DNA from: Chlorobiota bacterium
GTDB taxonomy: Bacteria > Bacteroidota > Ignavibacteria > OLB7
Assembly (NCBI GenBank): GCA_963711465.1
Contig: CAVQEG010000001.1
Coordinates: 1,241,699 to 1,305,698 of the forward strand
DNA: 64,000 nt
Reading direction: 5' to 3'
Of the stretch, positions 1,865 to 58,469 are shown one piece after another. Every line of letters begins with the position of its first letter. The first letter of the stretch is position 1. Made by a program: the position numbers and the translations under genes. The notes beneath the pieces were generated by a model that saw only the letters and a program-made list of their open reading frames with translations, was not told the DNA's origin and did no database searches.

Positions 1865-1886
1865 CCCCGCGCGCACCCGCCGCCGA

Positions 1887-2276: not shown

Positions 2277-2318
2277 CGTCTGGTGAACCGCCGATAGTAA
2301 TGTGGAATCGATTCGCAC

Positions 2319-4796: not shown

Positions 4797-4915
4797 CGTC
4801 GGTTTGTCGGTTGCGTTCCAATGAAACGGGGAAGCGCGCCGTCGACCGGCGGCTTCCCCGTTCGGATTTCCAGGGTATGGTTCGACGGCGGACCCAACGG
4901 CGCCGGAGCACCGGT

Positions 4916-6610: not shown

Positions 6611-6654
6611 CGCCCGCGATGCAGCGCGTGCGACACCGGCGGAGTCATTGCCGC

Positions 6655-6924: not shown

Positions 6925-7022
6925 GAGATCGGCAAATATCTGCAGTGCGGCCGTGTGGTCAAACGCACACTCCGTAACCGTCGGTGAATCGTTCTGCGAA
7001 CGCCGGTCGTGGCCCCTGCCCC

Positions 7023-22685: not shown

Positions 22686-23446
22686 ACAGCGCACAACAGC
22701 AGCGGACCGTCGAACGCTATCTCAACGGCGAACTGACGCCGTCGGAGGAACAGGATTTCTTCATTGAAGTCGCCGTCAATGATGAACTCCGTCAACGGCT
22801 GAAGGCGAACCGCATCGTCGACCAGGCGCTGGCCAGAGACAGCAAAGGGGTGAACCGTGATCACTCGCGGATGCGATCGCAGTTGCTGGCGCTGCACGGC
22901 GCCGCACTTTCCGGAGGCGCATTCGCCGCGCGGCATCGCGCCCTGCACCGAGTCGTGCGGGAATTGTTGACGTGGAAAGCCGCGGTGGTACTCGGTCTCG
23001 GAGGCGGCGGTGCCCTTCTCCTGCATGCGATCGACCCGGCGCCGCCAGCGTCGGTTCCTGTGTCGGCGCCGTCAAACGGCGGAGTCGTAACCGCGCCGCA
23101 GCACCGGGACCCACAGCCCACATCCGGCACCGACCACGCGGTCGACGGCTTCGATGAACCGATCACAACGCCCGACGCCGCGTCGACTGATGTTCCCGTC
23201 ACCGCAGGGCCGGCCGTGACGGCCACGGCCTCGCGCCGACACGATGCGCTGGAGGTCGGTCATCCCCGATCGGACTCTTCGATGGCATCGTCGACTGCGC
23301 CGGCCGATTCCGTTGTGATGGATCGGCAGGATTCTTCGCGCATCGGTGCAACCACCCTCCCATCCGACCATCGAACCTCCTACGAGACGGACGATTCAAT
23401 TCATATCAAGGGAATCGTTCTCCCGCCTCGCATCGAACGCCGGTGA
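22682..23446 (+). CDS. Anti-sigma factor (single-pass membrane)
   Basis: ATGA overlap with the sigma-gene stop. N-terminus RYLNGELTPSEEQDFF is a typical anti-sigma motif. There is one TM helix (AAVVLGLGGGGALLL) and a Pro/Thr-rich periplasmic tail. Confidence 0.55.
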   Translation: MNSAQQQRTVERYLNGELTPSEEQDFFIEVAVNDELRQRLKANRIVDQALARDSKGVNRDHSRMRSQLLALHGAALSGGAFAARHRALHRVVRELLTWKAAVVLGLGGGGALLLHAIDPAPPASVPVSAPSNGGVVTAPQHRDPQPTSGTDHAVDGFDEPITTPDAASTDVPVTAGPAVTATASRRHDALEVGHPRSDSSMASSTAPADSVVMDRQDSSRIGATTLPSDHRTSYETDDSIHIKGIVLPPRIERR

Positions 23447-23997: not shown

Positions 23998-26787
23998 CTA
24001 CCGCACGACCATCATGCGCCTCGTTGCGGTGGCACTGCGGCTTCTGATGCGCAGCACATACGCGCCCGGGCGAATATCCGCGAGGTCGAGCGCCAGCCGC
24101 GTCCGCCCACCCGTGCCGACGAGCGATCGCCTCGAGGCGATCGCGCCGCGCTCGTCCACCAGTTCGAGCGTTACCGCTTCGTTCGTCGGCGCCAGCAGGT
24201 CGATCGTCGCGCGATCACGGGCCGGGTTCGGCTGCACCGATTCGATCGATAGTTCCGTCCCCGCAATCTGCCGCCGCTCGACCGCCAGCACCGGAATCGA
24301 TGTCGAGAATACACCCGCCCCATGTGTCCCGACTGCCACGAACCCGTCGGACTGCCGCGCGTCGATCATGTCGACGACCTCATTGCCGATCGACGTCGAT
24401 CCCTCCCATTCCCAGAACGTATTCATCCCATCGAGTTTCGATGTCGAGTACAGTCCCGTGCTCGTTCCCACCAGCCACAGCGTTCCATTGGAGCGATGGA
24501 GTATTTGAATCGATCGAACCGACGGCCCGTCACCGGTGCCGTCCGGATGCTGCTCGAGATTGCCGCCGACTGATTCCCACGTGATTCCCCCATCGGTCGT
24601 CGAGAAGAGCGACTGAACGTCGTAATTGGAGAACGCCACCACGATGCGGTCTGCGTCGTCAGGATCGACGGAAATGGAACTGACATATCCATTCGGAAAC
24701 GTCGCCCCTGTGATCTCGCTCGGCGCAGCGTCGGCCGAGGGCTCGTCCAGTCGGAAGAGACGACCCGTGGCGGTTCCGTAATAGAGTCGGTGCGCCGGTG
24801 TCGTCGAGAACGCGACCGAGGAGATGACCACGGTGTCGGGCAGCATCGACGCGGCAAGCCTGTCCCACCCCTCAGTGGCACTCACCGTCCGATCCATTGG
24901 GATCTGCGTAAGATCGCCGTTGTACCACAGCGCATTCCCGATGGGAAGCACCATGGCGTGGCGGTCGTTGGGATCAATTGCAAATGGATTGATGAACAGA
25001 TAATCATCCGCGACCGGACCGGCCGGATCGATCCGCGTCTGCCCCGTTGCCCGCCCCTGCGCATCGAGGGTCACACGGTAGATCCGGCCCAACTGCTTGG
25101 AGACGTACACCGATCTGCCACCATCGGCGAATGCACAATACGCTCCGTCGCTGGAACCCATCTCGGTCCACGGCTGACGTTCATCGGTGCTCGCCGTCAT
25201 CCACGTGCCGTTGTCCTGCATTCCACCAATGATCATCGGGTTGCCAGGCGAATCGTGATCGACGGCAATCGAAAAGAACTGCGTGGTCAGATAGCCGTTC
25301 GCCAGAGCGCTCCAGCGCACCGTATCGGCCAGACAATCATCCGTTCGATGCACACCGCCGTCGCTTCCGGTATACATTACATTCGGATTTCCGGGTTCGA
25401 ATACGAATACGTGCTCATCCGGGTGGTGACCGGGGTAGGAATACCGCTCGATCACGCTCGAATCGCGTTCGAAATTCTCGTACCCGCCGATCCACGACGT
25501 GTGATCGGGAGTGGAAAAGCCGTCGGTGGAACGTATTACATTCGTGCCGCCGAGAAACACGGTGTTTTCATCGACCGGATCAACCGCAATCACCAGATCG
25601 TAGCTCGACTGAGAATTGAAATCTCCCGCCCATCCTCCGTACTGCGGAATGTTGTCGGTGAGATTCTCCCAGACGCCGCCCGTGCCGGAACCATCGCCGG
25701 AACGGTAGGTGTATTTCCAGAGTGAATGCCAGAGGGAATCCCCTCGGTAGTTGAATCCGAGAGAGCCATGACCGGGCGTTTCAGAAACGAAGTAGACGAC
25801 GTTCGGATTCGATTTCGAAATTCCAATTGCCGTGCGATTGTAGTCGGCAGGCCAGTCGGGTGGAGTGATATTGACGAAAGCTCCCGCTCGCGTTCCCCGC
25901 CAGACGCCGGCGGTGCGCCCGTCGGAACTGATGGTGGCGTATACCACGCCGGAATCACCGACGGCGACATCGGTGAAGTAGCCGCTGTAGTATCCCTGGA
26001 TCGACGGACCGCCGACGACGTACGACCAGCGGTTGCCGCCGTCGGTGGATCGCTCGATGGTACCGAACACGGCGGCATAGACGACATCGTGGGCCGTATC
26101 GGAGGGATCGGTCGCGACGCGCCACGAGAGGTCGAAGATGTTGTCGAAGTGCGCGGGATCATCGCCTGCACGACGCGTCAGCGGTACCCATGACAGCCCG
26201 CGATCGGTCGACTTGTAGAGGCCGTCGCCGTAGAAATACGCTCCGGCGCCCGACTCGCTGGCCCCGACCAGTTCCCCGCTCCCGCAGTACCATACGTTGG
26301 TGTGACCGGGCCTCGTATCCTGCGCCAGGCACGTGATCGACGGATCCTGATCGAGTCCTGTGGTGCGTGTCCAGGAATGGCCCTGATCGGTCGAGCGCCA
26401 CATTCGACCGCTGACACCGCCGGCGAGCAGCACGTTGGTGTCGCTCACATCGATGGCGAGTGCGCGCGTACGGCCTCCGATATTCCACGGTCCCCGCTGA
26501 CGCCAGTCATAGTCGAGTATGCCGGCGCGTTTGGAGTCTGAACCAACTGCCGGAATGGTGCGCGCGAAGGCGAGCTCACGTTCACGTGCATCGCGGGGAA
26601 CGCGGCCGGTGCGCGGATCGGCCAGTCGCATGATCTCCCAGGCGACGCGTTCGCGGGAGAACTCCGAGTCTTCGGAGCCGCGCGCCGACGCGGCAGCACC
26701 GGACCGCAGGTGCATGAAGACGACGATTGCGGCGGCGGCCGAAATCGCGCAGGCGATCAGTACGAGAATTCGCAGGCGTGTGGACAT
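23998..26787 (-). CDS. BNR-repeat beta-propeller protein (glycoside-hydrolase/sortilin-like) with T9SS type-A CTD
   Basis: Multiple S/TxDxGxxW BNR motifs (STDQGHSW, STDRGLSW, STDGGNRW, TTDGGITW). The C-terminal 80 aa (…PGAYVLRIRSRSATATRRMMVVR) form a T9SS CTD. An N-terminal signal/TM segment is present. Confidence 0.65.
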   Translation of the reverse strand: MSTRLRILVLIACAISAAAAIVVFMHLRSGAAASARGSEDSEFSRERVAWEIMRLADPRTGRVPRDARERELAFARTIPAVGSDSKRAGILDYDWRQRGPWNIGGRTRALAIDVSDTNVLLAGGVSGRMWRSTDQGHSWTRTTGLDQDPSITCLAQDTRPGHTNVWYCGSGELVGASESGAGAYFYGDGLYKSTDRGLSWVPLTRRAGDDPAHFDNIFDLSWRVATDPSDTAHDVVYAAVFGTIERSTDGGNRWSYVVGGPSIQGYYSGYFTDVAVGDSGVVYATISSDGRTAGVWRGTRAGAFVNITPPDWPADYNRTAIGISKSNPNVVYFVSETPGHGSLGFNYRGDSLWHSLWKYTYRSGDGSGTGGVWENLTDNIPQYGGWAGDFNSQSSYDLVIAVDPVDENTVFLGGTNVIRSTDGFSTPDHTSWIGGYENFERDSSVIERYSYPGHHPDEHVFVFEPGNPNVMYTGSDGGVHRTDDCLADTVRWSALANGYLTTQFFSIAVDHDSPGNPMIIGGMQDNGTWMTASTDERQPWTEMGSSDGAYCAFADGGRSVYVSKQLGRIYRVTLDAQGRATGQTRIDPAGPVADDYLFINPFAIDPNDRHAMVLPIGNALWYNGDLTQIPMDRTVSATEGWDRLAASMLPDTVVISSVAFSTTPAHRLYYGTATGRLFRLDEPSADAAPSEITGATFPNGYVSSISVDPDDADRIVVAFSNYDVQSLFSTTDGGITWESVGGNLEQHPDGTGDGPSVRSIQILHRSNGTLWLVGTSTGLYSTSKLDGMNTFWEWEGSTSIGNEVVDMIDARQSDGFVAVGTHGAGVFSTSIPVLAVERRQIAGTELSIESVQPNPARDRATIDLLAPTNEAVTLELVDERGAIASRRSLVGTGGRTRLALDLADIRPGAYVLRIRSRSATATRRMMVVR

Positions 26788-26962: not shown

Positions 26963-27367
26963 TCACTTCGGATTCCTTCTCTGGCAGAGCTCCACCAGCA
27001 CACCGTTGAAACTCGAGGGATGTACGAAGGCGACGAGCATGTCGTGCGCGCCCTCGACGGGCGATTCATTGATCAGCCGCGCGCCATTCCGCTTCAATCG
27101 ATCGAGTTCCGACGCGATATCCTCGACCTCGAATGCGATGTGATGAATTCCTTCACCCCGCTTGTCGAGAAACCTTGCGATCGGCGATCCTTCGCGTGTC
27201 GAGGCCGTCAGCTCGATCACTTGATCGCCGACGCTGTAGGATGCGATGTCGACGCCCTGTGATTCGACCTGTTCGCGATGCGGGTCGGTCTGGCCGAACA
27301 GCGCTCCGTAGTGCTGCATGGCGTCAGCGAGGGATGCAACGGCAATACCGATGTGTGAAATCTTCAT
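26963..27367 (-). CDS. mce: Methylmalonyl-CoA epimerase (VOC/glyoxalase fold)
   Basis: MKISHIGIAV…GEGIHHIAFEVEDI…LVELCQ. The ATG at 27367 is preferred over the ORF-track start. Confidence 0.7.
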   Translation of the reverse strand: MKISHIGIAVASLADAMQHYGALFGQTDPHREQVESQGVDIASYSVGDQVIELTASTREGSPIARFLDKRGEGIHHIAFEVEDIASELDRLKRNGARLINESPVEGAHDMLVAFVHPSSFNGVLVELCQRRNPK

Positions 27368-27393
27368 TGAGTCGTCAATTCCGGCTCCGGCGT

Positions 27394-28161
27394 TCACGCC
27401 TGACGTTCGGCGTAGACGGCGTTGATGGCTTCGAGCTGTTCGATGGTGTTGATGCCGCTGACTTCGGTGGCGTCGGTGACTTCGCAGGCGGCGACCCTGC
27501 GGCCGTGGTCGCGGAACCAGGCGAAGACGTCGGTCAGGTAGTACTCGCCCTGTGCATTGTCGTTGTCGAGTTCGCCCAGCGCCTCGAGCAGATCGGCGCA
27601 GCGATACACGTAGATGCCGGTGTTGATTTCGTCGATCGCACGTTCGGCGTCGGTGGCATCCTTGTGTTCGACGATGCGGGCGACCGTACCGTCCTCGTTG
27701 CGGATGACGCGGCCGTAGCCCGTCGGATCCGGCATCCTGACGGTGAGGACGGTGGCGACGGCGTCGGCCGAGCGGTGGGTCTCATCGAGCGCCGCTACCG
27801 TCGCGGGGCTGAGCATCGGAACGTCCCCGGAGAGCACGAGCACGTCCCCGTCGAAATCCTCCAGCATCGGCGCGGCCTGCATGACGGCGTGCCCGGTGCC
27901 GAGCTGCTCGGACTGCACGACGCAGTCGACGACCTCACCGAAGGTGCTCAGGAGGTACTCGCGGACCATTTCGCGCTGGTATCCGATGACGACGATGGTG
28001 CGTGCTGCACCCGACTCGAGTGCCAGGGTGACGACGTGTCCGATCATCGGCATATCGCCGACGGGGAACATCACCTTTGCCATCGAGGGATCCTTCATCC
28101 GTGTGCCCTGGCCGGCGGCCATGATCACCACCGCGAGCGGTCGGTCGGTCGACGTTCGCAT
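27394..28161 (-). CDS. Standalone sugar-1-phosphate nucleotidyltransferase domain, closely resembling the N-terminal uridyltransferase half of GlmU (no LbH acetyltransferase half)
   Basis: AVVIMAAGQGTRMKD, QSEQLGTGHAV, IVEHKDATD, EINTGIYV and NDNAQGEYYLTD match GlmU residues 1-250. The protein ends at 255 aa. Confidence 0.65.
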   Translation of the reverse strand: MRTSTDRPLAVVIMAAGQGTRMKDPSMAKVMFPVGDMPMIGHVVTLALESGAARTIVVIGYQREMVREYLLSTFGEVVDCVVQSEQLGTGHAVMQAAPMLEDFDGDVLVLSGDVPMLSPATVAALDETHRSADAVATVLTVRMPDPTGYGRVIRNEDGTVARIVEHKDATDAERAIDEINTGIYVYRCADLLEALGELDNDNAQGEYYLTDVFAWFRDHGRRVAACEVTDATEVSGINTIEQLEAINAVYAERQA

Positions 28162-28167
28162 CCTCGG

Positions 28168-28560
28168 CTACACCTCCACCAGTTCGTGATTCGAGTCGAC
28201 ACCGCGCGAGGTCTTCACGATTCGGTTGTGTTCGTCGACGAGCACGACGGTCGGAGCGTACTCGCGGGCTTCGGCCTCGGTCATCGCGGCGTAGCTGATG
28301 ACGATGATGCGATCGCCGACCTGTCCCTTGCGCGCGGCTGCGCCGTTGAGACAGATGACGCCGCTGCCCGCTTCGCCCTTGATCAGATAGGTCTCGAAGC
28401 GTTCGCCGTTGTTGATGTTGACAACCGCGACCTTCTCGTACTCAAGCAGGTCGGCTGCGGCCATGAGCTGCGCGTCGACGGTGAGACTGCCCTCGTAGTC
28501 GAGTTCGGCCTGTGTGACCGAGGCGCGGTGGATCTTGGATTTGAACATGAAACGGGTCAT
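28168..28560 (-). CDS. panD: Aspartate 1-decarboxylase
   Basis: [25 protein letters not shown]…[27 protein letters not shown] is near-canonical PanD. Confidence 0.9.
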
Positions 28561-28590
28561 CGGAGGCCACGTTCGAAAGTGTGTGTGAAA

Positions 28591-29442
28591 TCAAACTTCG
28601 GTTCGCTCGAGCGGAAGGTTGTCGATCAGGCGCGTCGATCCGACGCGAGCAGCGACGATGGCCAGCGGCTCGGTTCCGTCGAGACGGGCCCGCAGGGGAA
28701 CGAACGAATTCGCGTCGACGATATCGATGTAGTCCACCGCGACGGCGGGATCGATCTCCTGCCGCATGCGGCGGAGCACCTCATCGAATTCCTCCCCTCG
28801 CTCGGCCGCATCGCGTCCGGCGAACAGGGCTCGCGAGAGCGAGCGTGCGGCGGTGCGATCGGCGTCGGTCAGATAGACGTTGCGGGAACTGCGGGCCAGT
28901 CCGTCGGCTTCGCGCTCGGTGGGCACCGTGACGATGCGCAGCGGCATGGCCAGGTCCCGAACCATGCGACGAACCACTGCCACCTGCTGTGCATCCTTGC
29001 GACCGAAGAGCGCGACATCGGGTCGAACGACGTTGAACAGCTTGGCGACGACGGTCGTGACACCGCGGAAGTGGGTTGGTCGCGACGCGCCTTCGTAGAT
29101 CCGGCCGAGACCGGTGACCTCGACCCAGGTGGAGAAGTCGTCCGGATAGGTCTCGCCGGTCTCGGGCGTGAACAGCAGGTCGCAGCGCTCTTCGCGCAGC
29201 GCCGCCAGATCGGCATCGATGTCGCGCGGATAGCGCTCGAGGTCCTCTCCGGGCGCAAACTGGGTCGGGTTGACGAATATGGAAGCGACGACGCGGTCGG
29301 CCTCATGATGGGCCTGTCGCAGCAGCGCTCTGTGACCGTCGTGGAGGTATCCCATCGTGGGCACGAACGCGACGGAGCCGCCGTCGGAGCGCAGTTCATC
29401 GACGGCAAGGCGGGTTTCTTCGATGGAGCTGGTCCTGATCAT
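28591..29442 (-). CDS. panC: Pantoate--beta-alanine ligase
   Basis: VPTMGYLHDGH and FGRKDAQQ motifs. Length is 283 aa. Confidence 0.9.
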   Translation of the reverse strand: MIRTSSIEETRLAVDELRSDGGSVAFVPTMGYLHDGHRALLRQAHHEADRVVASIFVNPTQFAPGEDLERYPRDIDADLAALREERCDLLFTPETGETYPDDFSTWVEVTGLGRIYEGASRPTHFRGVTTVVAKLFNVVRPDVALFGRKDAQQVAVVRRMVRDLAMPLRIVTVPTEREADGLARSSRNVYLTDADRTAARSLSRALFAGRDAAERGEEFDEVLRRMRQEIDPAVAVDYIDIVDANSFVPLRARLDGTEPLAIVAARVGSTRLIDNLPLERTEV

Positions 29443-29472
29443 CGCGTCGCTTCGGTGGGGTCCGGCGGGGAT

Positions 29473-30414
29473 TCAGAGTATGCGCTTGCCCATCGCGGAG
29501 GCAACCAGTCCGACGGCGAACTGGGCGCTGCGGTTGACGGTGTCGAGGATCGGGTTGACCTCGGCGACTTCGAGCGAACCGAGCGCTCCGCGTTCGGCGA
29601 TCATCTCCATGACGAGGTGGGCTTCGCGGTAGGTGAGGCCCCCGGATACCGGCGTGCCGACGCCCATGGCGATGCTCGGGTCGACGCTGTCGAGATCGAA
29701 GGAGACGTGGATATGGTCGGTGCGTGCCTGCAGGTAGTCGATGGCCTGTTCGATGACGGGATAGACACCGAGCCGGTCGATGTCGGTCATCGTATAGGTA
29801 ACGATCCCGTGCTCGCGTATCAGGCGGCGTTCGCCAGCATCGACCGACCGGAGTCCGATCATCACGATGTTGGCGGGATCGACCTTGCGGAAGTCTCCTC
29901 CCACGCCGGTGAGCTCCGGCGCGCCGAGTCCGATGGAGGCTGCGACCGGCATACCGTGGATATTCCCCGAGGGCGAGGTACCGGGGATGTTGATGTCGGA
30001 ATGCGCATCGATCCAGATGACGCCGAGGCGTTTCTTCGCCGATCGGCAGTATCCGGAGACGCCGGCGAGGGTACCGATCGCCATGGAGTGATCGCCGCCG
30101 AGCACGAGCGGGAAGCTGCCGGCATTGAGCACGCTCTTGACGCGTCGGGCGAGCGTCCCGCAGGCAGCGGCGATCTGCGGCATGTACTTCAGGTGCGGAT
30201 CGAGGATCGCGAGCACCTCGGGCCGTTTGATATCGATGTCACCCTCATCCTCGACGGTGTAGCCGAGCGCGGTGAGCTTCTTGTCGATATCGGCGATACG
30301 CAGCGCGGAGGGACCCATGTCGACACCGCGGCGATCGGCGCCGAGGTCCATCGGAAATCCAATCAGGTGTACGGCCGGCTTCCTTGAGGCCCGCTTCGTG
30401 GTTGATGTTGCCAT
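29473..30414 (-). CDS. Arginase-family (ureohydrolase) enzyme, most like arginase
   Basis: GGDHSMAIG, IWIDAHSDINIP and SFDLDSVDP Mn-binding motifs, plus TPVSGGLTYREAH. Confidence 0.75.
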   Translation of the reverse strand: MATSTTKRASRKPAVHLIGFPMDLGADRRGVDMGPSALRIADIDKKLTALGYTVEDEGDIDIKRPEVLAILDPHLKYMPQIAAACGTLARRVKSVLNAGSFPLVLGGDHSMAIGTLAGVSGYCRSAKKRLGVIWIDAHSDINIPGTSPSGNIHGMPVAASIGLGAPELTGVGGDFRKVDPANIVMIGLRSVDAGERRLIREHGIVTYTMTDIDRLGVYPVIEQAIDYLQARTDHIHVSFDLDSVDPSIAMGVGTPVSGGLTYREAHLVMEMIAERGALGSLEVAEVNPILDTVNRSAQFAVGLVASAMGKRIL

Positions 30415-30483: not shown

Positions 30484-31326
30484 TCAGTCGGTCGGCAGCA
30501 GCGCCAGCAGGCGCGCGAGGGTCTGGCGCAGCTGCTTGCGATGCACGATCTGGTCGACGAAGCCATGCTCGAGCAGGAACTCCGAGCGCTGAAATCCGTC
30601 GGGCAGTTTTTTTCGGATGGTCTGTTCGATCACGCGGGGACCGGCGAAGCCGATCAGGGCTTTCGGTTCGGCGAGCGTGACGTCACCGAGCATGGCGAAC
30701 GACGCGGTGACACCACCGGTGGTCGGATCGGTCAGCAGGACGATGTAGGGAATTCCCTCTTTGGCAAGCAGCGCCAGTCGGCCGGAGGTCTTGGCCATCT
30801 GCATGAGCGACAGGGCGGCCTCCTGCATGCGGGCGCCTCCGGAGGCGGTGATCGCCAGCAGTGGAATCCGTTCGGTGCGCGCGGCGTCGACCGCCCGACA
30901 GAATTTCTCCCCCACCACCGATCCCATCGAACCGCCGGCAAAGCTGAAGTCCATTGCTGCCAGCGCGATCATCCGGCCCTCGACGGTGCCGGTGCCGGTG
31001 CGGATCGCGTCGTTGAGCCCGGTGCGCTTGCGGTAGTGCGGTATCCGCTCGGCGTACGGCTTTTCGTCGACGAATCCGAGCGGGTCCGCGGAGATCATGT
31101 CGCGATTGGTTTCGATGAACGAACCCGGATCGAAGATGATCTCGACGTACTGGGCCGAACCGATGCGGAAGTGCTGGTCGCAGTGGGGGCAGGTGTACAG
31201 ATGCTCGTCGAGCTCGCCCTTGTAGAGCATTTCGCCGCACCCGTGGCACTTCATCCACAGGCCGTCAGGGACGTTGCGAACCTCCTGCTCCTCGATATTC
31301 TTCTTGGTACGATTGAACCAGGCCAT
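30484..31326 (-). CDS. accD: Acetyl-CoA carboxylase carboxyltransferase beta subunit
   Basis: N-terminal Zn ribbon CHGCGEMLY…CPHCDQHF, followed by a carboxyltransferase domain. Confidence 0.9.
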   Translation of the reverse strand: MAWFNRTKKNIEEQEVRNVPDGLWMKCHGCGEMLYKGELDEHLYTCPHCDQHFRIGSAQYVEIIFDPGSFIETNRDMISADPLGFVDEKPYAERIPHYRKRTGLNDAIRTGTGTVEGRMIALAAMDFSFAGGSMGSVVGEKFCRAVDAARTERIPLLAITASGGARMQEAALSLMQMAKTSGRLALLAKEGIPYIVLLTDPTTGGVTASFAMLGDVTLAEPKALIGFAGPRVIEQTIRKKLPDGFQRSEFLLEHGFVDQIVHRKQLRQTLARLLALLPTD

Positions 31327-31332
31327 CAGCCA

Positions 31333-32022
31333 CTATTGATCGGTCATGGGGTGCTGGCGCGTTCGCGCCGAGGTAATTCCGCTAATATACAATGGCTCGA
31401 TTTCCTCCGGCCGCACCGCTACACCCTGTGCAACCAGCGCCATTGCCCGCTCTCCGACCGCCCGGGCGCGCAGCTCGCGAGAACCGGAGGCGATCGGATC
31501 AGTCGCGCCGACCTCGAGCAGGTCGATGCCGGGGCCGGCCAGGAGCGTCGACGGCTCGAGCCGGCGCATCGCTTCGGACGGATCGAGCGTCTGCACCGCG
31601 GAGGTGCGTCGGAATGCAGGATCGACGTCGTAGAGGGCGACGTAGACGCCCAGTGAGGCAGCGCCAATCATCGCCGCAACCCGCGAACGACCCGCGGCCC
31701 GCGCTGCTTCGGCAGCATTCCACGCGATTGCATCGAGGGTCGCAACGGGGACGACGCGAACGTCGGTCGCCAGCGCAACGCCGGTGACGAAGCTGATGCC
31801 GATGCGAATGCCGGTGTAGGAGCCGGGTCCCACCGATACCGCGATGGTTTGCAGATCATCGATCGACGCGCCGACGGCATCGAGAGCATCGCGGAACAGT
31901 CCGGCGAGGAGTCGATCGTGCGCACGCTCGAGCTCGACGTGGAATTCGGCGATCAGTCGCTCGTCGTCGAACAACGCGACGCCGCAGGTACGTCCGGTCG
32001 TCTCGATGGCAGCAAGCATGGC
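31333..32022 (-). CDS. tsaB: tRNA threonylcarbamoyladenosine biosynthesis protein TsaB (YeaZ)
   Basis: MLAAIETTGRTCGVAL…VGPGSYTGIRIGIS. The start chosen is the ATG at 32022, and the ORF-track start at 32070 is an alternative. Confidence 0.7.
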   Translation of the reverse strand, partial: AMLAAIETTGRTCGVALFDDERLIAEFHVELERAHDRLLAGLFRDALDAVGASIDDLQTIAVSVGPGSYTGIRIGISFVTGVALATDVRVVPVATLDAIAWNAAEAARAAGRSRVAAMIGAASLGVYVALYDVDPAFRRTSAVQTLDPSEAMRRLEPSTLLAGPGIDLLEVGATDPIASGSRELRARAVGERAMALVAQGVAVRPEEIEPLYISGITSARTRQHPMTDQ

Positions 32023-32130
32023 AGTGCGGGTACGGCGATCCCCCGCGACGGCGGCAGGGGCAGCCGACAAAAAAACGCGACGGGACCGGCTTTCAACCGA
32101 TCCCGCCGTGTGCAGGTGGAAATCAGATTG

Positions 32131-32634
32131 TCATCTGTCGTGGCCGGGTTCCATTCGCCCGTGCGGCGAGACGCCGGCCGGCTCGGGTTCGCGACGAACG
32201 ACCTCGATGCGACGATCGCTGTCGTCGTCGGTGTTGTACATGCAGACGTCGTAACGTCGCGGAGGCAGCACCACGCCGGCGTTTTCGGCCCACTCGATCA
32301 ACTTGATCGAATCGGGGTCGGCGAGTATCTCTTCGAGTCCCAGTTCGACCAGATCATCGGGCGACTCGACGCGGTAGAGGTCGATATGGTTGATCGGCAC
32401 CGCGTCGCCATCGGCGTCGACGCCGTCGTACTGGTTGATGATGGTGAACGTCGGACTGGCAACGATTTCGTGGACGTTCATTCCGCTGCAGATGCCCTTG
32501 ATGAACTCGGTCTTACCGACACCGATGTCGCCGTAGAAGGCGATGACGTCGCCGGGAGAGAGCCGCGAGGAAAAGTCCGCGCCAAGCCGGAACGTCTCCT
32601 CCTCGCTCGAAGTCGAGTATATCTCAATGTTCAT
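32131..32634 (-). CDS. tsaE: tRNA threonylcarbamoyladenosine biosynthesis ATPase TsaE (YjeE)
   Basis: Walker A YGDIGVGKTEFIKG and an SPTF motif. Confidence 0.7.
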   Translation of the reverse strand: MNIEIYSTSSEEETFRLGADFSSRLSPGDVIAFYGDIGVGKTEFIKGICSGMNVHEIVASPTFTIINQYDGVDADGDAVPINHIDLYRVESPDDLVELGLEEILADPDSIKLIEWAENAGVVLPPRRYDVCMYNTDDDSDRRIEVVRREPEPAGVSPHGRMEPGHDR

Positions 32635-32715: not shown

Positions 32716-34296
32716 TCACGATCCGGCGCTCCGGGGTTTGAGCGTCACGACGGGGAGTATCATTTCCTCGAGCGAGATACCACCGTGCTGGAAGCTGTCA
32801 CGGTAGTGATTGAGGTAATAATGATACTCGGTCGGGTAGACGAAGTAGTAGTCCTCCTTGGATATCACATACTCGGTCATCATGCCGCGTTTCGGCAGCC
32901 GGAAGCGCTCCGGATCGCGGACATGAACGGCATACTTGCCGTCGACCTTCACATTCCGTCCATACTTGTAGCGCAGGTTCGTCGACGTCTCCCGATCGCC
33001 CAGCACCTTCGCTCCGCGCATGCAGCGAATCGCGCCGTGATCGGTGGTGACGATGATCTGCGCGTCCTTGACCGAGGAGAGCGCCCGGAGCATTCCGTAG
33101 AGACTGGAGTGTTCGAACCAGCTGCGGGTCAGCGACCGGTAGGCCGATTCGTCGGGGGCGATCTCCTTGAGGATCGGATAGTCCGACCGTGAGTGCGCCA
33201 TCATGTCCACCGCGTTGACGACCACGGCCGTCAGCGGCGACTGCGTGTAGCTCATGATCTCCGACTCGATCTTCCGACCGAAGTCGGTGTCGATGATCTT
33301 CACATAGCGGAGGCCGCTGCGCAGCTTGACGCGGCGGCGCTCCAGAAGCTTCTCCAGCAGCTCCTTCTCGTACTTGTTCTGCGAATGGTCGTCGTCGTTG
33401 CGACCCTGCCACAGCTCCGGGTAGTTCGCTTCGATTTCCGAGGGAAACAGTCCCGAGAAGATCGCGTTGCGCGAGTACGGCGTCGCCGTCGGCAGGATTC
33501 CGTAGTAGTAGTCCTTCGTCACCGAATACATGCCGCTGAGCAGTTCCTCGAAGACCATCCACTGGTCGAGCCGCATGCAGTCGACGACGAACAGGAAGAC
33601 GGGGCCTGCGTCGGCCTTGATCTTCGGAATCACGTACTCGTTGACGATGTCGACGCTGAGCAGCGGCCGATCGGTCGTCTTCGCGTCGAGCCACCGTTCG
33701 TAGTTGTCCTCGATGAACCGGGCGAATTCAGAGTTCGCGTCCCGCTTCTGGTCAGCCAGGGTCTGTTCCAGACCGAGATCGCGGTGCCGATCGAATTCCA
33801 GCTCCCATCCGGTGAGCTTCACATACAGTGCGATCCACTCCTCCCAGTCCATCGGGTTCATCAGCTGAATCGCCATCTGGCTGAACTCGCGTGTATAGTC
33901 GCGCGAGACCAGATCGGCCTCCAGGCGCTTGCCCTCGAGGAACTTCTTGCAGGCCAGCAGAATCTGCGTCGGGTTGACCGGCTTGGTGAGGTAGTCGGAG
34001 ATGCGGCGGCCGATCGCCTCCTCCATCACCGTCTCGGCCTCGTTCTTGGTCACCATCACCACCGGCACCGAGGCGTCGATCTCCTTGATGCCGCTGAGCG
34101 TCTCCAGTCCGCCCATGCCGACCATCGATTCGTCGAGGAACACGAGGTCGAACGGCCGTTGACGGACCAGCGCCAGCGCGTCCTCGCCGTTGGTGACCGT
34201 CTCGACGTCGTAGCCCTTGGCCTGTAGAAACTTGATGTGCGGTCGAAGCAGATCGATTTCGTCGTCGACCCAGAGAATGGTGCGAGAGTTTGCCAT
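32716..34296 (-). CDS. porX: PorX-type response regulator (CheY-like receiver + PglZ/alkaline-phosphatase-like domain), T9SS regulator
   Basis: Receiver domain ILWVDDEIDLL…FDLVFLDESM…YLTKPV is followed by a ~400-aa PglZ-like domain (VVDCMRLDQW…TTDHG). The ATG at 34296 gives 527 aa, PorX-sized. No histidine kinase lies adjacent. Confidence 0.7.
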   Translation of the reverse strand: MANSRTILWVDDEIDLLRPHIKFLQAKGYDVETVTNGEDALALVRQRPFDLVFLDESMVGMGGLETLSGIKEIDASVPVVMVTKNEAETVMEEAIGRRISDYLTKPVNPTQILLACKKFLEGKRLEADLVSRDYTREFSQMAIQLMNPMDWEEWIALYVKLTGWELEFDRHRDLGLEQTLADQKRDANSEFARFIEDNYERWLDAKTTDRPLLSVDIVNEYVIPKIKADAGPVFLFVVDCMRLDQWMVFEELLSGMYSVTKDYYYGILPTATPYSRNAIFSGLFPSEIEANYPELWQGRNDDDHSQNKYEKELLEKLLERRRVKLRSGLRYVKIIDTDFGRKIESEIMSYTQSPLTAVVVNAVDMMAHSRSDYPILKEIAPDESAYRSLTRSWFEHSSLYGMLRALSSVKDAQIIVTTDHGAIRCMRGAKVLGDRETSTNLRYKYGRNVKVDGKYAVHVRDPERFRLPKRGMMTEYVISKEDYYFVYPTEYHYYLNHYRDSFQHGGISLEEMILPVVTLKPRSAGS

Positions 34297-34630
34297 GAAT
34301 GTCGGAGTAGTGGCGCCACAGGCGTCACGATGGTTTGTCGTTGTCGTGCGGCCCGATCTCCCATCCGGCGATCCAGCCCGTGGTATGGCGTCTCGAAATT
34401 CTCCGCGTCGACCTCCTCGACTCGTGCGTGCAACTCGTGCGTGAAAACGGTCACCAATGAACATCGCCCGACGCGGTTCGTACCTCTCAGGACGGGGACC
34501 TGGGGACTGACCCGAAGCGGGCGACCCGCTATATTACCATAGTTGCGTCAACGCGACAACTGCCCGTCAGACGCCGTCGCACCCCTCTTCCGAAGGCGAT
34601 TTTTTCACGCTCCCCAAGGCCATCATCCCG

Positions 34631-37438
34631 TTGAAACGGCCCCTTGTCCGCATAGTTCTCGCGCTGCTCTGCCAGTCGGTCCACGCACAAACGGCCAGCT
34701 GGTGGTATCCGATGGGCAACATGCGCGCCACGCGGAGTATCGATGACACCACCGCGCAGCAGAATGCCTCGCAACTGGTCCGCAAGTGGATGAGTCCGCG
34801 CCTTGCCGGAGCCACCACCGCACTGGTAGGCACGTTGTGGAGCGGCGAAGCCGGACAGCAGGTGGTGGGAATCGGCGGCGACGGACGGCTGCTCATCCTC
34901 TCCAGCGGCGGACGTGTGCTGCGGGAACGGACGTTTACTCTCCCTCCCGGTTCTGCAACGACGCTCACCGGACTGTTCGATCTCCACGCCTCCTCGCCCC
35001 GCACCACAGCGCATCCGGACGCGATCGGCGTCGGTGTGGTGCGCACGCAGAGCGACGACAACCCGGTCAACGGGCTGATCCTCGACAGTGCGGGTGTGGC
35101 CATCTACCCCGTTCCCGCGGACGTGATCGCCGCACCCCTGAGAGCCCGTGCCGGGTCGGTCGGCGTCTTCCCCGTCGCCGCCTACGATCCCGGAACCGGG
35201 CCGATCGTCATGGCGGCGATTTCCCAGCGCGGCGCGGTCGATACCATCCTTGTCAACGCGCTGCGGCGCTACCGCATCGGCCCCGGCGGACTGACGACCG
35301 ACTGGGACTACGAACTCGCACCGCGGCTCTACCCGCAGGCTCCGGCATTGCTCACACGGCCGGCACCGGGCGGCTCCGACAGCACGTGGCTGTCACTGGC
35401 CACGGCGTCCTACCGATTCGACCAGTCGGTGCGTGTCGTCGGACTCCAGCAGCAGGAAGAGACCCAGGCCGGCGGTATGCTCTCGTTCAACACCCGTGTG
35501 TTCGATCCGAGCAACGGCGCCAATGACATGTTCGGTCTGCTCGTGGAGCTCCGAGAGATCGCGGAGTCCGGAAATCCGATGGGAGAAGTCGACTCATACT
35601 TCACACGCGTCTACGACTCCTCAAATGCCGCTACCGACATTCCCCTCCGAATTCTCACCGAGAACCATTCGAGTGCGGACACCGGACTGCCGTCGATCCT
35701 TCTGACCGCGGTCGACGTCGAGCAGGCAGGATATCTGGGCCGCTACACAGATTCGACCATGCGCGACCTCGGCTGGTCGATCGTGACGGCCGACCTCGAC
35801 GGATCGGACCATTCGGACACCCTGCTGTCGGTACACCAGCCACCGGTGCTGATCAACAACCGCGGCGATGAGATCATCGGCGCGCGCCGGCGCAGCGACG
35901 GAGGCGACGTAGCGGACAACCGGTTCTACGTGTTCCGATGGAATCGGGAGAAGCCGGGTCCGGACGGGCGTCCGTTCACGTTGTTCGCGACGCAGCCGTT
36001 CAGCGGCCGACTGATGGCAGCAGCCGACCTGCTCAGCGATTCGAGTCGACGGCAGGAACTTGTAACCGCCGATGGCGATTCGGTGCGCATCTGGCAGATG
36101 CGGCCCTACGATGACCTCCGATTCGGCCACGCGGACGATCCGTCGCAGCGCGAGCCATTCCGGATGGTGCGCTCCTTCGGGTTCGGTGCGCCGGTCCTCG
36201 GCGTTGCTGCAGCCGATCTGGAGCTCGACGGCCACATCGACCTCGTCGTGACGACCTCCGAGGCGACCTGGGCCGTGGGCGTACTGCCGGCGCGTCCCTT
36301 CGGTCAGTTGACGCTCGCCTCGGGTACCGATTCGGTCTTCTGTCAGGGAACGCCGCTGGATCTGGTCTGGAGCCGCAACATCGGCAACGGCGAGACCGGC
36401 GTCGAGATCACGCTCGTCGACTCGGCCGGCACCCGCACGCCCGTCGGATCGGTCGGTGCCGCCGAAGTGGAAGCGTTTACGCTGGCGACCGGTTCGCTTA
36501 CTCCGGGGGTGTACCGGCTGGTGATTCGCGACGAGGAACTACCCGCACTCGTTGACTCCACGCGGTCGTTCCGGATACGGGCTGCATCGGTGGCGCCCTT
36601 CGATCTCCCCGCCTCGGCGAGCGTGGGCACGCGGATCTCGATCACGACCGCGATTCAATGCGTCGACACGCTCGTACTGGAGTATTCCGACGGTGGTGGT
36701 GCGTGGCTTCCGAGCGACGCCACGGTCATGATGACCGTCGACTCGGCGCGCGTCGTCTGGAGCGTTCCCTGTCCGTCCTCGGTCGGCTGCGGCGTCGACA
36801 CGGTTCCGAAGCTCCTTGTCAGACTCCGCACGGGCGACGGCGCGATCGCGGCGCCAATCGACACGATCGGCGTTGAAATTGCACCTCGAACGGTGCTGGT
36901 AGACACGGGTGCGACAGCGGGCCCGACGGTGCGGTGGAATCCGGCGGACTTCTCGTGTGACCGGGTGCGACTGACGCTGCGGCGCGGCGACTCGGTGGTC
37001 TGGAGCGATCTGGCAACGACGGCGGACGCACAGCGAGCGATCGAGATCCCCGCCCGCCTGCAGGGTGCCTTCCGTATCGGCGTCTGCTGCGATGCCGCCG
37101 GCGTGTGCGATTTCGGATCGACTGCGTTCACCTACGAGGTTCCGGTTACCGAGGACTACATCGCACCGAACCCGTTCGACCCGACCGTGGAGCAGGCGGA
37201 GATCGTCGTGCGGCTCCGACATGCGGGTCGCCTGAGCGCATCGATTTACGATGCCGGGCGGGCGCTGGTGCGCGAGCTCGTCGACGACCGTGACCATCCG
37301 GCGGGAAGCGTCGCGCGGCTGCGCTGGGACGGCCGAAATTCACAAAGTGAAATTGTTGCCGGGGGAACGTATATTTGCCTTGTTCATACAAGTACCGGTG
37401 AACAGTTCCGACTCCCAATCATCGTTATGAAGCATTGA
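34631..37438 (+). CDS. Large secreted FG-GAP/VCBS-like repeat protein with T9SS C-terminal sorting domain
   Basis: Signal peptide MKRPLVRIVLALLCQSVHAQ. D-x-D-G-type motifs (TADLDGSDHSD, AAADLELDGHIDLVV) are present. The C-terminus has APNPFDP…RLRWDGRNSQSEIVAGGTYICLV…, the WDG…G.Y variant of the T9SS CTD. Confidence 0.55.
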   Translation: MKRPLVRIVLALLCQSVHAQTASWWYPMGNMRATRSIDDTTAQQNASQLVRKWMSPRLAGATTALVGTLWSGEAGQQVVGIGGDGRLLILSSGGRVLRERTFTLPPGSATTLTGLFDLHASSPRTTAHPDAIGVGVVRTQSDDNPVNGLILDSAGVAIYPVPADVIAAPLRARAGSVGVFPVAAYDPGTGPIVMAAISQRGAVDTILVNALRRYRIGPGGLTTDWDYELAPRLYPQAPALLTRPAPGGSDSTWLSLATASYRFDQSVRVVGLQQQEETQAGGMLSFNTRVFDPSNGANDMFGLLVELREIAESGNPMGEVDSYFTRVYDSSNAATDIPLRILTENHSSADTGLPSILLTAVDVEQAGYLGRYTDSTMRDLGWSIVTADLDGSDHSDTLLSVHQPPVLINNRGDEIIGARRRSDGGDVADNRFYVFRWNREKPGPDGRPFTLFATQPFSGRLMAAADLLSDSSRRQELVTADGDSVRIWQMRPYDDLRFGHADDPSQREPFRMVRSFGFGAPVLGVAAADLELDGHIDLVVTTSEATWAVGVLPARPFGQLTLASGTDSVFCQGTPLDLVWSRNIGNGETGVEITLVDSAGTRTPVGSVGAAEVEAFTLATGSLTPGVYRLVIRDEELPALVDSTRSFRIRAASVAPFDLPASASVGTRISITTAIQCVDTLVLEYSDGGGAWLPSDATVMMTVDSARVVWSVPCPSSVGCGVDTVPKLLVRLRTGDGAIAAPIDTIGVEIAPRTVLVDTGATAGPTVRWNPADFSCDRVRLTLRRGDSVVWSDLATTADAQRAIEIPARLQGAFRIGVCCDAAGVCDFGSTAFTYEVPVTEDYIAPNPFDPTVEQAEIVVRLRHAGRLSASIYDAGRALVRELVDDRDHPAGSVARLRWDGRNSQSEIVAGGTYICLVHTSTGEQFRLPIIVMKH

Positions 37439-37824
37439 TCCGGCGTCACCTCCATATACTCTTCATCCTCGTCTGCATGCTCATGCCGGCCATCGGCACT
37501 GCGGCCGGGGGCGGTCCGGGTGTGCAATCCGACGGAGGACCTGCGCCCGACGCGAAGAAGAAGGAGATCACCGCCACGATCACGCGATCGGTGGAGAACG
37601 AACAGATCAAGCTGGTCGCATTCTTTCCCGAGGACACACCCCGACTGAAGTGTTCGCTGTACAATCTCCTCGGAAAGCTCATCGACGTCCACCCCACCAC
37701 CTCGGTCGAGGCCGGGCGCTTCGCGTTCACATTCCGAACGAAGGGGCTGCCCAACGGACCGTACATCGTGGTGCTGGAGGCAAACGGACAACGGATCATT
37801 CAGAAGGTCATGCTGGCGCGCTGA
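37435..37824 (+). CDS. Mini-protein consisting of signal peptide + short linker + T9SS CTD-like domain only
   Basis: ATGA overlap with the upstream gene. Signal peptide MIRRHLHILFILVCMLMPAIGTAAG. The C-terminal 70 aa (LKCSLYNLLGKLIDVH…GPYIVVLEANGQRIIQKVMLAR) resemble a T9SS sorting domain, and there is no cargo domain. Confidence 0.5.
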   Translation: MIRRHLHILFILVCMLMPAIGTAAGGGPGVQSDGGPAPDAKKKEITATITRSVENEQIKLVAFFPEDTPRLKCSLYNLLGKLIDVHPTTSVEAGRFAFTFRTKGLPNGPYIVVLEANGQRIIQKVMLAR

Positions 37825-37952
37825 TGCGCGTCGGCCAGAGTCCCGCCACGCATTCTCCGATCGAACCTCATCCGATCGAACCTCACGTGAACGCTCCCGC
37901 GTACTGCGCAACCGCTTCGTCAGGCCCACGACGTCGCCCGGCGGCCGGCCGC

Positions 37953-38936
37953 ATGGTCGTCGCGCTGCTCGTATGCGCGGCCGTTCACATGACGAGCTAC
38001 GCGCAGCTGCCGGGCGGGTATGCCGCCGCATTTCTCAATCGCACGTTGTTCGCGCCCGAGATCGCTCGAGCAGGGGCGTATACGCCGTTCGAACCTGACG
38101 GGTCGGCGGTTATCGCCAACGCCTCGGCGCTGAGCCGACTGAGGCGCCCGAGTCTCACGTTCGCCGCATCGGAGGCACCGTTGTCGCAACGCTCGGCGGC
38201 ACTGGCGTTTGGGACGACCGTCGGTGACTTCGGCGGGCTCGGCATCGGCGTGAGTCACTACGGGATCGGCGACGTCCCTCGCCGCACGGCGGACGGACTT
38301 CGCATCGGAACCACCGGGGACCAGTGGATCGCGGTGATCGGTGGCGGTGCGCTGTCGCTCGGTCCGGGCAGCATCGGAATGAGCATGCGGTACATCCGTG
38401 AGGACGTTGCCGGTGTCGGCGTCTCCCGAAGCGGGTACGCCGTGGATCTCAGCGGCAGTATGAACTTCGAGGACCGGATCTTCCTGGCAACGTCGGTCAA
38501 CAACGTCGCCGGTGACATGTCCTCCGGCGCAGGTGAGCGGGGACGAATTCCCCTGGAGGTCCGGCTCAGCGGATCGTGGCTCTTCCCCTTCGAGGAACGC
38601 ACCACGGAGGTCCGGCCCGATCCCACCGGTCTGGCGCGGGTCGTTCAGCTTCGCCCCCGGACGTACCTGCTGGCCGTGGCCGAGGCACGGATGCTCGACG
38701 TCGAATCCGATGCCGTGCTCAGCGTCGCGATCGAGGCCGTTCCCGTCGACTTCGTGCAACTGGGATTGCGTGCCGGTGTGAATTCTGCCGGAGACGTCAG
38801 CTTCGGTTTTCTCTACCGGCTTCCGGTGGGATTCACCGATGAGCTTCGAATCGACTACGCGGCACGGCTCGACCAGGAGTACGGCGACACCGGCGGCGCG
38901 ATCACCCACCACGTCTCGATTTCCGCAGGATTCTGA
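37953..38936 (+). CDS. Outer-membrane beta-barrel protein (possibly PorP/SprF- or PorQ-like T9SS-associated OMP)
   Basis: The ATG at 37953 gives the signal peptide MVVALLVCAAVHMTSYAQ. Beta-strand alternation is present and the C-terminus ends …HHVSISAGF (terminal Phe). Family assignment is by context only. Confidence 0.45.
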   Translation: MVVALLVCAAVHMTSYAQLPGGYAAAFLNRTLFAPEIARAGAYTPFEPDGSAVIANASALSRLRRPSLTFAASEAPLSQRSAALAFGTTVGDFGGLGIGVSHYGIGDVPRRTADGLRIGTTGDQWIAVIGGGALSLGPGSIGMSMRYIREDVAGVGVSRSGYAVDLSGSMNFEDRIFLATSVNNVAGDMSSGAGERGRIPLEVRLSGSWLFPFEERTTEVRPDPTGLARVVQLRPRTYLLAVAEARMLDVESDAVLSVAIEAVPVDFVQLGLRAGVNSAGDVSFGFLYRLPVGFTDELRIDYAARLDQEYGDTGGAITHHVSISAGF

Positions 38937-39130
38937 CCGACGGCATGCCTCGTCCGTCGACTGACGATTCGTGCTCGGTGGCATGGAATTGGGGCGCCGG
39001 TCCGGCAAGACTTCGAGGTCCAGTATGCTCGAGGTCCAGGAGTGACCTCTCGGTCTCTCCCCATGCGCTAGTACGAACGGTCGGCGACGCTGCAGAGGGC
39101 TGCTGCGGCGGCTGATCGATTCGCAAACCC

Positions 39131-39178
39131 GTGGCCCCGGCCGAAGTGGTACGGTCGGGGCCACTCTGTGTTCCTTCC
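39131..39178 (+). terminator. Rho-independent terminator ~200 nt downstream of the beta-barrel gene
   Basis: GTGGCCCCGGCC-gaagtggtac-GGTCGGGGCCAC (11/12-bp stem) followed by TCTGTGTTCCTTCC. Confidence 0.5.
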
Positions 39179-39458
39179 GCCGATCGCCGAAGTTCATCGA
39201 CCGCTCATCTTCACCGGCTAGATTCGAGAATGGTTTTCACGAACCATGTGCCCACGCAGAGGTCCAGGGTTTGTTCGTGGGAGAGCCGGAGGTCCAATTC
39301 CGATCGTGTGTCGCGACTGAGCGGCAGATGAACTCCACCGAACCACGTATTTCCAGCATCCTCTGCATTCAACCAGGCAGATCCCCACAGATCTGTGCCC
39401 CCAACAGACGAGTCGGCTCGTGCCCAACGTGTTGCCGGCTCGGAAGTGCCCGATGGCA

Positions 39459-39504
39459 TTTTTTGCGTCCCCGTCGTTGCCCACGACGGGGACGCGTTGT
39501 TTGT
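39459..39504. other. Perfect 13-bp inverted repeat GCGTCCCCGTCGT-tgccc-ACGACGGGGACGC flanked by TTTTTT (5') and GTTGTTTGT (3')
   Basis: Seen directly. It lies in the 693-bp non-coding gap upstream of rpiB. It may be a terminator of an unannotated small transcript or a protein-binding palindrome. Confidence 0.4.
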
Positions 39505-39629
39505 ACCGGACCGGATCGTGGCCCGCGATTGTTTCGCATTGTACCGCCGGCGGCCGCGCACCGACGCACGGGACGCGCTTGCGTATATTCGACTTTTTGT
39601 AATCGACCGGGAGCTGCCCGATACGCACG

Positions 39630-58321: not shown

Positions 58322-58469
58322 AGCGCCTGGCAGAGGCGCCGCACCGAGTGTGAGGGCGGTATCCATAGTGCCCATTCGACACGGCCGGCGACGGGGCGTT
58401 TAACAAGGCCATTGGAAGAATCGGTTCCATTGGAACCCCTGGTGCCTCGAGCGTCGAGACGACGACCGA

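Follow-up and report, generated by a model that had tools for sequence, protein, structure and literature searches.

A PorX response regulator encoded next to tsaE in a Chlorobiota genome, and the occurrence of the pair across FCB lineages

The porX locus

The 64,000-nucleotide stretch considered here (the window) comes from a Chlorobiota bacterium (assembly GCA_963711465.1, contig CAVQEG010000001.1, positions 1,241,699 to 1,305,698). It contains a minus-strand gene for PorX, the T9SS (type IX secretion system) response regulator. This gene is the first in a run of minus-strand genes separated by gaps of 6-81 nt, as delineated by codon-position GC and family searches. It is followed by tsaE, whose product belongs to the UbK/YjeE/YdiB family, then by tsaB, encoding the dimerisation subunit for N6-threonylcarbamoyladenosine (t6A) synthesis, and then by accD, an arginase-family gene, panC, panD and a nucleoside triphosphate (NTP) transferase gene. 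The initial annotation had placed porX after tsaE, tsaB and accD; in fact porX lies upstream of tsaE-tsaB-accD and heads the run. The same gene order recurs in two of the closest related loci, L084 and L085, and in many Ignavibacteria-type loci. Divergently from porX, on the plus strand, lie three genes encoding a secreted protein with immunoglobulin-like (Ig-like) domains, a small protein consisting of a T9SS-type C-terminal domain (CTD), and a candidate outer-membrane protein. Coordinates are given in Table 1. A long open reading frame (ORF) on the plus strand (27133-30387, 1084 aa), antisense to the arginase-family gene, panC, panD and the NTP transferase gene, was rejected as an artefact of high GC content, as it has the wrong codon-position GC and no family matches.

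Table 1. Features of the porX locus, of the rest of the window, and of the loci with sprA upstream of porX
Feature	Positions	Strand	Remarks
porX	32716-34296	-	526-aa response regulator: receiver domain, helical linker, PglZ/alkaline-phosphatase-type domain
tsaE	32131-32634	-	UbK/YjeE/YdiB family; 81 nt downstream of porX
Terminator-like hairpin	32078-32108	-	14 pairs, GC-rich, followed by U7; in the 60-nt tsaE-tsaB gap; z-score -2.9
tsaB	31333-32070	-	t6A dimerisation subunit; TIGR03725, 143 bits (cutoff 69)
accD	30484-31326	-	acetyl-CoA carboxylase carboxyltransferase beta; from family searches
Arginase-family gene	29473-30414	-	
panC	28591-29442	-	
panD	28168-28560	-	
NTP transferase gene	27394-28161	-	
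Divergent intergenic region	34297-34630		334 bp between porX and the 935-aa gene
935-aa secreted protein	34631-37438	+	TTG start; signal peptide (MKRPLVRIVLALLCQSVHAQ); predicted N-terminal beta-propeller, Ig-like array and C-terminal beta-sandwich (FlgD_ig/CTD-like)
129-aa CTD-only protein	37435-37824	+	signal peptide, short linker, T9SS-type CTD
327-aa outer-membrane protein	37953-38936	+	distant relation to PorV/PorQ
Gap after the 327-aa gene	38937-39629		about 690 bp
Terminator-like hairpins	39131-39164, 39464-39496	+	two, strong, after the 327-aa gene
CTD ORF	11075-12274		Por_Secre_tail at or above the Pfam cutoff; also Exo_endo_phos
CTD ORF	14375-20137	-	Por_Secre_tail at or above the Pfam cutoff; 1920-aa Ig-repeat protein
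CTD ORF	23998-26787		just under the Pfam cutoff; passes TIGR04183
Extracytoplasmic function (ECF) sigma factor	22050-22685		generic ECF matches only
ECF sigma factor	57716-58375		generic ECF matches only
sprA-porX in related loci L004, L007, L011-L013, L015-L018, L020, L022, L024, L025, L028, L029, L032, L036, L042, L070	about 800-7950 in most		sprA/sov directly upstream of porX

The PorX protein

The minus-strand reading frame containing porX (32716-34464) is open for 582 codons. The PorX homologues have 521-526 aa, and each starts at the position equivalent to MANSRTILWVDDE. Thus the true start of porX is the ATG at 34296, which gives a protein of 526 aa.

With the NCBIfam equivalog T9SS_RR_PorX (NF052313, cutoff 300) this protein scores 708.4 bits, and its residues 6-522 align with positions 2-513 of the 513-position model. 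Both Pfam domains are above their cutoffs: Response_reg at residues 7-115 (85 bits, cutoff 30) and PglZ at residues 233-425 (70 bits, cutoff 25). The search of PDB yielded a full-length match to PorX of Porphyromonas gingivalis (7pv7, E=7e-150) and alignments over the whole length with PorX of Flavobacterium johnsoniae (8ted and 8p6f, E=1e-143). Thus the receiver plus PglZ architecture proposed in the initial annotation is upheld, and its PglZ assignment, which a profile search might have overturned, holds.

The catalytic residues are present. The phospho-acceptor pocket of the receiver domain comprises D11, D12, D55, T83 and K105, where D55 corresponds to the phospho-acceptor D58 of the P. 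gingivalis protein. All seven metal ligands of the PglZ domain are retained (D239, T272, D364, H368, D419, H420, H504) and map one to one onto D239, T272, D361, H365, D415, H416 and H500 listed for P. gingivalis PorX by Schmitz et al. (PMC9757075). The catalytic residues are conserved in 77-82 of the 85 aligned orthologue ORFs. PorX of the window is therefore an intact, ordinary copy, and it stands in its usual genomic setting, as described below.

One could suppose that the protein is instead a PglZ phosphatase of the bacteriophage exclusion (BREX) type fused to a receiver domain, and thus belongs to phage defence and not to T9SS regulation. The fold is common to PorX and BREX PglZ (PMC9757075), and there is a secondary match to the NCBIfam family BREX_PglZ_3 (104 bits over residues 146-519). 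However, this score is far under the cutoff of 250 and is to be compared with 708 bits for the PorX equivalog; none of the window ORFs that were scanned matches a BREX protein family; and the solved structures nearest to the protein are those of PorX itself. A BREX identity is effectively refuted by the NCBIfam scores and the PDB search, and we give it practically no credence.

The porX-tsaE pair

TsaE of the window scores well above the cutoffs of both Pfam PF02367 (118 bits, cutoff 26.6) and the equivalog TIGR00150 (92 bits, cutoff 60). Its translation holds all four motifs of the UbK proteins, namely Walker A (GDIGVGKT), SPT, HIDLYR and EW, and in this it resembles the members of the UbK1/TsaE/YdiB/YjeE family with solved structures (PDB 5np9, 9zw5, 6n9a, 1htw), the third motif of the family being HxDxYR.

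The short gap between tsaE and tsaB contains a terminator-like hairpin followed by a U-run (Table 1). The corresponding gaps in the closest relatives (L084-L086) are 168-266 nt long. A weaker small hairpin with a T-run is found in this gap in L084, a hairpin overlapping the end of tsaE in L085, and no hairpin was found at the tsaE-tsaB gap in L086. The hairpin of the window may close a porX-tsaE transcription unit, acting as a terminator or as an attenuator that splits off tsaB-accD.

The neighbourhood of porX was surveyed in one genome per GTDB species. All counts in this section are among the matches listed. Of these, 80 PorX loci from the survey have 44-64% identity to the window protein, and 78 of them have at least 500 nt downstream of porX. 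In 64 of these 78 genomes the porX stop codon is followed within 400 nt by tsaE in the same orientation, and in three more tsaE is on the same strand but farther downstream. The exceptions to the adjacency include two Poribacteria, Longimonas and two Rhodothermales. The loci come from records labelled Ignavibacteria, Melioribacter, Kapaibacterium, Chlorobiota, Calditrichia, KSB1, Rhodothermales, Balneolaceae, Latescibacterota, Gemmatimonadetes, Krumholzibacteriia, Zixiibacteriota and Neomarinimicrobiota. The closest genomes are not among the 80. No genera of the class Bacteroidia are named among them, and this class is covered only via P. gingivalis, where ubK1, a TsaE/YjeE/YdiB homologue, was found consistently downstream of porX in 81 strains (Saran et al. 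2026, PMC13241743); tsaE of the window occupies the same position.

Many loci continue with tsaB, accD, panC, panD and the NTP transferase gene, as the window does. The gene following tsaE is tsaB in 53 clustered loci besides the window and rimI in about 15 others. In about 19 Ignavibacteria-type loci (Table 1) sprA/sov is located directly upstream of porX on the same strand, which yields the order sprA-porX-tsaE; the identity of sprA/sov is set by TIGR04189, with 982 bits in L029. The porX-tsaE context is thus widespread and probably ancestral. The initial annotation described porX as standing in a housekeeping context. Its tsaE, tsaB and accD neighbours are indeed of that kind, and the setting is not odd, given the frequency of tsaE after porX.

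A different layout was seen at three loci. In a Rhodothermales genome (L081, 9538-11283) a single open frame after porX encodes a TsaE-like N-terminus and a FolC domain, and in L062 and L063 folC directly follows porX without tsaE. These could be the result of a gene fusion or of a local rearrangement.

The divergent genes

The 935-aa protein is fast-evolving: its identity among relatives is 29-37%, to be compared with 75-86% for PorX. Only seven homologues were found in the database, with 31-37% identity. Its matches to FlgD_ig (14.5 bits, cutoff 27) and FG-GAP_3 (13.9 bits, cutoff 26.9) are both below the thresholds, and it has no match to Por_Secre_tail (PF18962) or TIGR04183. All seven homologues carry a precomputed FlgD_ig match, and two of them carry precomputed FG-GAP or VCBS matches (PF13517 or PF01839). 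Thus the label of FG-GAP cargo given to this gene earlier is not established by profile thresholds. In the AlphaFold2 model (mean pLDDT, the predicted local distance difference test score, of 75.8) an N-terminal all-beta propeller-like region precedes several Ig-like domains in a row, and a beta-sandwich forms the C-terminus. The best fold match in PDB is the plexin ectodomain, which also has a propeller and then Ig domains. The predicted C-terminal sandwich is compatible with a CTD and is not specific to it. A PorZ-like identity is not supported: there is only a 10.6-bit match to the PorZ C-terminus, and PorZ is absent from the 50 best fold matches listed, which are led by plexin and generic Ig arrays.

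The second gene encodes a protein with a near-threshold match to Por_Secre_tail (23.5 bits, cutoff 27), and its orthologue in the related locus L001 carries a precomputed match to the same family. The stop codon of the 935-aa gene overlaps the start of this gene by 4 nt (37435-37438). The overlap is kept in three relatives (L084, 6624-6627; L085, 6822-6825; L086, 6658-6661), which suggests translational coupling. Compared by profile, the CTD-type domain of the 129-aa family and the C-terminal domains of the 935-aa and 1920-aa proteins are all short and much diverged.

This protein brings to mind PorA of P. gingivalis, a small CTD-bearing signal to PorXY: it is likewise small, secreted and of CTD type, and is encoded beside porX. 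However, PorA (PGN_0123) has 246 aa and a FimH-like N-terminal domain (PMC7712824). The 129-aa protein lacks that additional domain, no sequence similarity to PorA was found, and the PDB sequence search returned nothing relevant. A PorA-like identity was therefore rejected, and the resemblance is in kind only.

The third protein and three orthologues match the family PorV_fam (NF033709, best E=1.7e-15) and essentially nothing else except PorQ, which is matched by three of the four. Like the PorV and PorQ barrels, it matches only PorV/PorQ models and is encoded beside CTD-type proteins. On the other hand, the protein encoded in the window fails to reach either curated cutoff (44 against 90 bits for NF033709, 27 against 220 bits for PorQ), and its sole PDB profile match, to PorV (6h3i), is weak (E=0.66).

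All three genes are found back to back with porX in L001-L003, L084 and L085, where PorX is 75-83% identical to that of the window; the 83%-identical PorX, with the same synteny, is in assembly GCA_048498995.1. In L086 the first two are kept and a gene for an unknown 249-aa protein replaces the barrel gene. The divergent arrangement with the 935-aa gene occurs in seven of the 87 loci compared and in none other. Plausibly the three genes constitute a lineage-specific T9SS surface module, and to call the setting of porX a housekeeping context would then undersell it.

Downstream of the PorV/PorQ-like gene, a stretch of about 690 bp contains no credible ORF and two strong terminator-like hairpins on the plus strand (Table 1). 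An ORF of 425 aa on the opposite strand (37920-39197, minus) was rejected as a high-GC artefact because of its codon-position GC, the lack of family matches, and the presence of a gene with a family match on the other strand.

The intergenic region and autoregulation

The 334-bp gap between porX and the 935-aa gene was correctly noted in the initial annotation: it extends from the porX start at 34296 to the TTG start at 34631, which is followed by the signal peptide. The further suggestion was that this shared region points to local autoregulatory wiring. On such a reading PorX would bind the region and directly control two promoters, its own and the one of the divergent cargo operon. Two observations are in line with this. 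The divergent arrangement with the 935-aa gene is kept in seven loci, and one study reported PorX footprints on the porT promoter of P. gingivalis (PMC8050853).

However, the region itself does not look like a conserved regulatory site. In the alignment of the window with four relatives the mean column identity is 48%, and there are no conserved blocks except TATATT. All four closest sequences have the hexamer in the orientation of the 935-aa gene, at 60-169 nt before its start codon, whereas by a rough estimate about 0.01 occurrences per sequence are expected by chance at this GC content. In the window it belongs to the sigma-70-like promoter match CTGACC-17-TATATT (34507-34535, plus strand), 95 nt upstream of the 935-aa gene. 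The one conserved element thus looks like a sigma-70-type -10 box and not like a response-regulator site, and the three divergent genes appear to be driven by a sigma-70-type promoter of their own.

The search of the gap for direct repeats yielded a single repeat of note, the 13-nt tandem pair ACTCGTGCGTGCA/ACTCGTGCGTGAA at 34420-34445. It was rejected as a regulatory motif, as none of the 86 related loci has it and the window shows no enrichment of it. The predicted RNA folding of the gap is no better than that of shuffled sequences on either strand (z-scores +1.0 and +0.4), and the Rfam search of the whole window gave no match. PorX has no DNA-binding domain by Pfam or by PDB comparison. The divergent arrangement is also confined to a narrow lineage, about 19 other genomes among the matches listed having sprA upstream of porX instead. 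Nothing shows direct control of the three genes by PorX, local autoregulation has no support, and we consider direct binding of PorX to this region very improbable.

The kinase and the T9SS circuit

Scanning of about 50 candidate ORFs throughout the 64-kb window gave no match to HisKA or HATPase_c, and the gene calls of four distinct relatives (L001, L084-L086) include no histidine kinase within 10 kb. The earlier statement that no such kinase is encoded near porX is thus borne out. In P. gingivalis porX and porY are also separately encoded orphans (PMC4800418), and hence the absence of a nearby kinase is the norm for PorX. The term "orphan" is correct in the sense that the gene is unlinked from its kinase, and not in the sense of a peculiarity. 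The core T9SS genes porKLMN and sprA are not within the window, where the T9SS-type material consists of CTD-type cargo and the PorV/PorQ-like barrel.

By analogy with the work on P. gingivalis and F. johnsoniae, an unlinked, distant kinase of the PorY type would phosphorylate D55. Phosphorylation or zinc binding would cause PorX to dimerise and would switch on the phosphodiesterase activity of the PglZ domain; the coupling of this activity to the receiver domain has been described (PMC9757075). The output would pass through protein partners, such as PorL or an ECF sigma factor of the SigP kind, and not through a DNA-binding domain.

The two ECF sigma factors of the window have generic ECF matches only, and neither was assignable to SigP. 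The first of them is followed by an unknown 254-aa gene (the two together at 22050-23446, plus strand), near the gene of the 1920-aa Ig-repeat protein with the T9SS CTD. A similar group occurs in L001, whose PorX is 75% identical: the segment 14362-21581 encodes an ECF sigma factor (40% identical), an unknown 263-aa protein, a protein with an OmpA domain and a CTD protein of 1906 aa with Ig repeats, and this cluster is within a few kilobases downstream of porX-tsaE-tsaB. Judging by gene neighbourhood, the ECF sigma factor near the Ig-repeat protein in the window could be a candidate SigP-like partner.

Compared with P. gingivalis PorX (PGN_1019/PG0928; PDB 7pv7, 7pvk), the window protein has the same receiver domain, helical linker and PglZ domain over the full length, the same phospho-acceptor and metal ligands, a gene position away from a histidine kinase, and tsaE/ubK1 directly downstream. 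The differences are a serine, Ser76, in the column of the UbK1 target Tyr79, the genomic background (about 63% G+C, a lineage of the Chlorobi/Ignavibacteria/Kapaibacterium type), and the divergent T9SS-like genes, confined to the few loci named above. With F. johnsoniae PorX it shares full-length homology and domain order.

Lineage and other features of the window

Identity to the window PorX is highest (75-86%) for proteins of metagenome-assembled genomes labelled Chlorobi, Chlorobiota, Ignavibacteriae, Bacteroidota or "Candidatus ...". Among the matches listed, identity is 60-63% for the loci labelled Kapaibacterium and 52-53% for Rhodothermales. Thus a deep-branching position outside Bacteroidia within the Fibrobacterota-Chlorobiota-Bacteroidota (FCB) group, as proposed in the initial annotation, is a fair description, and Rhodothermota is not the best fit. 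The lineage had also been described as one using Shine-Dalgarno sequences. No enrichment was observed: a Shine-Dalgarno-like tetramer occurs at -18 to -6 in six of 48 predicted starts, compared with 11.5% of random positions, the choice of start codons being approximate, which limits the test. Initiation of translation poor in Shine-Dalgarno sequences is reported for genomes of the Bacteroidota type, and the window fits this pattern.

T9SS-type cargo is abundant in the window, as the initial annotation had it, and the count of at least five CTD proteins holds in part. Two ORFs reach the Pfam cutoff and one passes TIGR04183 only (Table 1); the 129-aa protein is just below the cutoff, and the 935-aa protein has nothing beyond the FlgD_ig hint. 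A 702-aa protein (7023-9131, minus strand) combines Exo_endo_phos with an Omp85-type beta-barrel, seemingly an unusual architecture; the adjacent ORF 11075-12274 combines Exo_endo_phos with a T9SS CTD. The ARAGORN prediction of tRNA-Cys with the anticodon ACA (55416-55493, minus strand) lies within a short-chain dehydrogenase coding sequence and is probably a false positive.

Discussion

The segment 32716-34296 probably encodes a functional PorX orthologue; judged on the sequence and its comparisons, this is the best explanation. As suggested by synteny, the hairpin and the study of UbK1, porX and tsaE would form a co-expressed pair delimited by the hairpin and U-run after tsaE, and TsaE would be a second, locally encoded input or partner of PorX. 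A broader model can be built on this. The pair porX-tsaE(ubK) would be a signalling module of two genes that is ancient in the FCB group and has grown to sprA-porX-tsaE in Ignavibacteria types, with TsaE acting on PorX through a site or mechanism other than Tyr79. In this lineage the module would also have been linked, back to back, with a surface unit that could inform PorX of the status of T9SS, the part that PorA plays in P. gingivalis. In this complete form the model is speculative, and we would give it only a small chance of being correct.

Several observations weigh against the best explanation given first. UbK1 phosphorylates PorX at Tyr79 in vitro in P. gingivalis, and the substitution Y79A leaves gingipain secretion there unchanged; Saran et al. 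also note that Y79 is not broadly conserved (PMC13241743). In the window PorX the residue aligned with Tyr79 is Ser76, and none of the 85 aligned orthologues has a tyrosine in this column, whose residues vary (N, S, E, G and others). Since the column is variable and Y79A has no effect on secretion, the two genes could be adjacent for a reason unrelated to phosphorylation, or without any functional meaning. Further, tsaB directly follows tsaE in the window, which fits a plain t6A role of TsaE. Finally, terminator-like matches are no more frequent across the region than in shuffled sequences (7 against 6.4 expected), and thus the tsaE-tsaB hairpin is suggestive only.

The main alternative is passive synteny: TsaE would serve only as the t6A ATPase together with TsaB and TsaD, and PorX would merely head a housekeeping operon. 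The genes that follow tsaE, be it tsaB or rimI, are classic t6A neighbours, and the lack of conservation and of a secretion phenotype at Y79 is what would be expected. Kinase activity towards PorX is known for the P. gingivalis pair only, and here a t6A role is equally compatible with the data on TsaE. However, the adjacency persists down to 44% PorX identity and in many phylum-level lineages among the matches listed, while the genes further downstream vary. Catalytically active UbK1 does phosphorylate PorX in vitro. The hairpin with the U-run separates tsaE from tsaB in the window, and wide gaps do so in the closest relatives. On balance passive synteny seems rather unlikely, and it is a more serious contender than the other alternatives considered above.

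The adjacency of porX and tsaE extends across many FCB lineages and the phosphorylation site does not. Thus the link between PorX and TsaE is likely to be old and under selection, and to require a mechanism other than phosphorylation of Tyr79.

The original observation by itself is of little weight: both PorX and its place are standard, and a kinase is as a rule missing beside this regulator. What was known before is the adjacency of porX and ubK1, reported in 2026 only within strains of P. gingivalis. What is new is that the porX-tsaE pairing, in some lineages as sprA-porX-tsaE, occurs across many FCB lineages, and that the published phosphosite is not carried along with it. This provides a concrete target for the study of T9SS regulation outside the oral pathogens.

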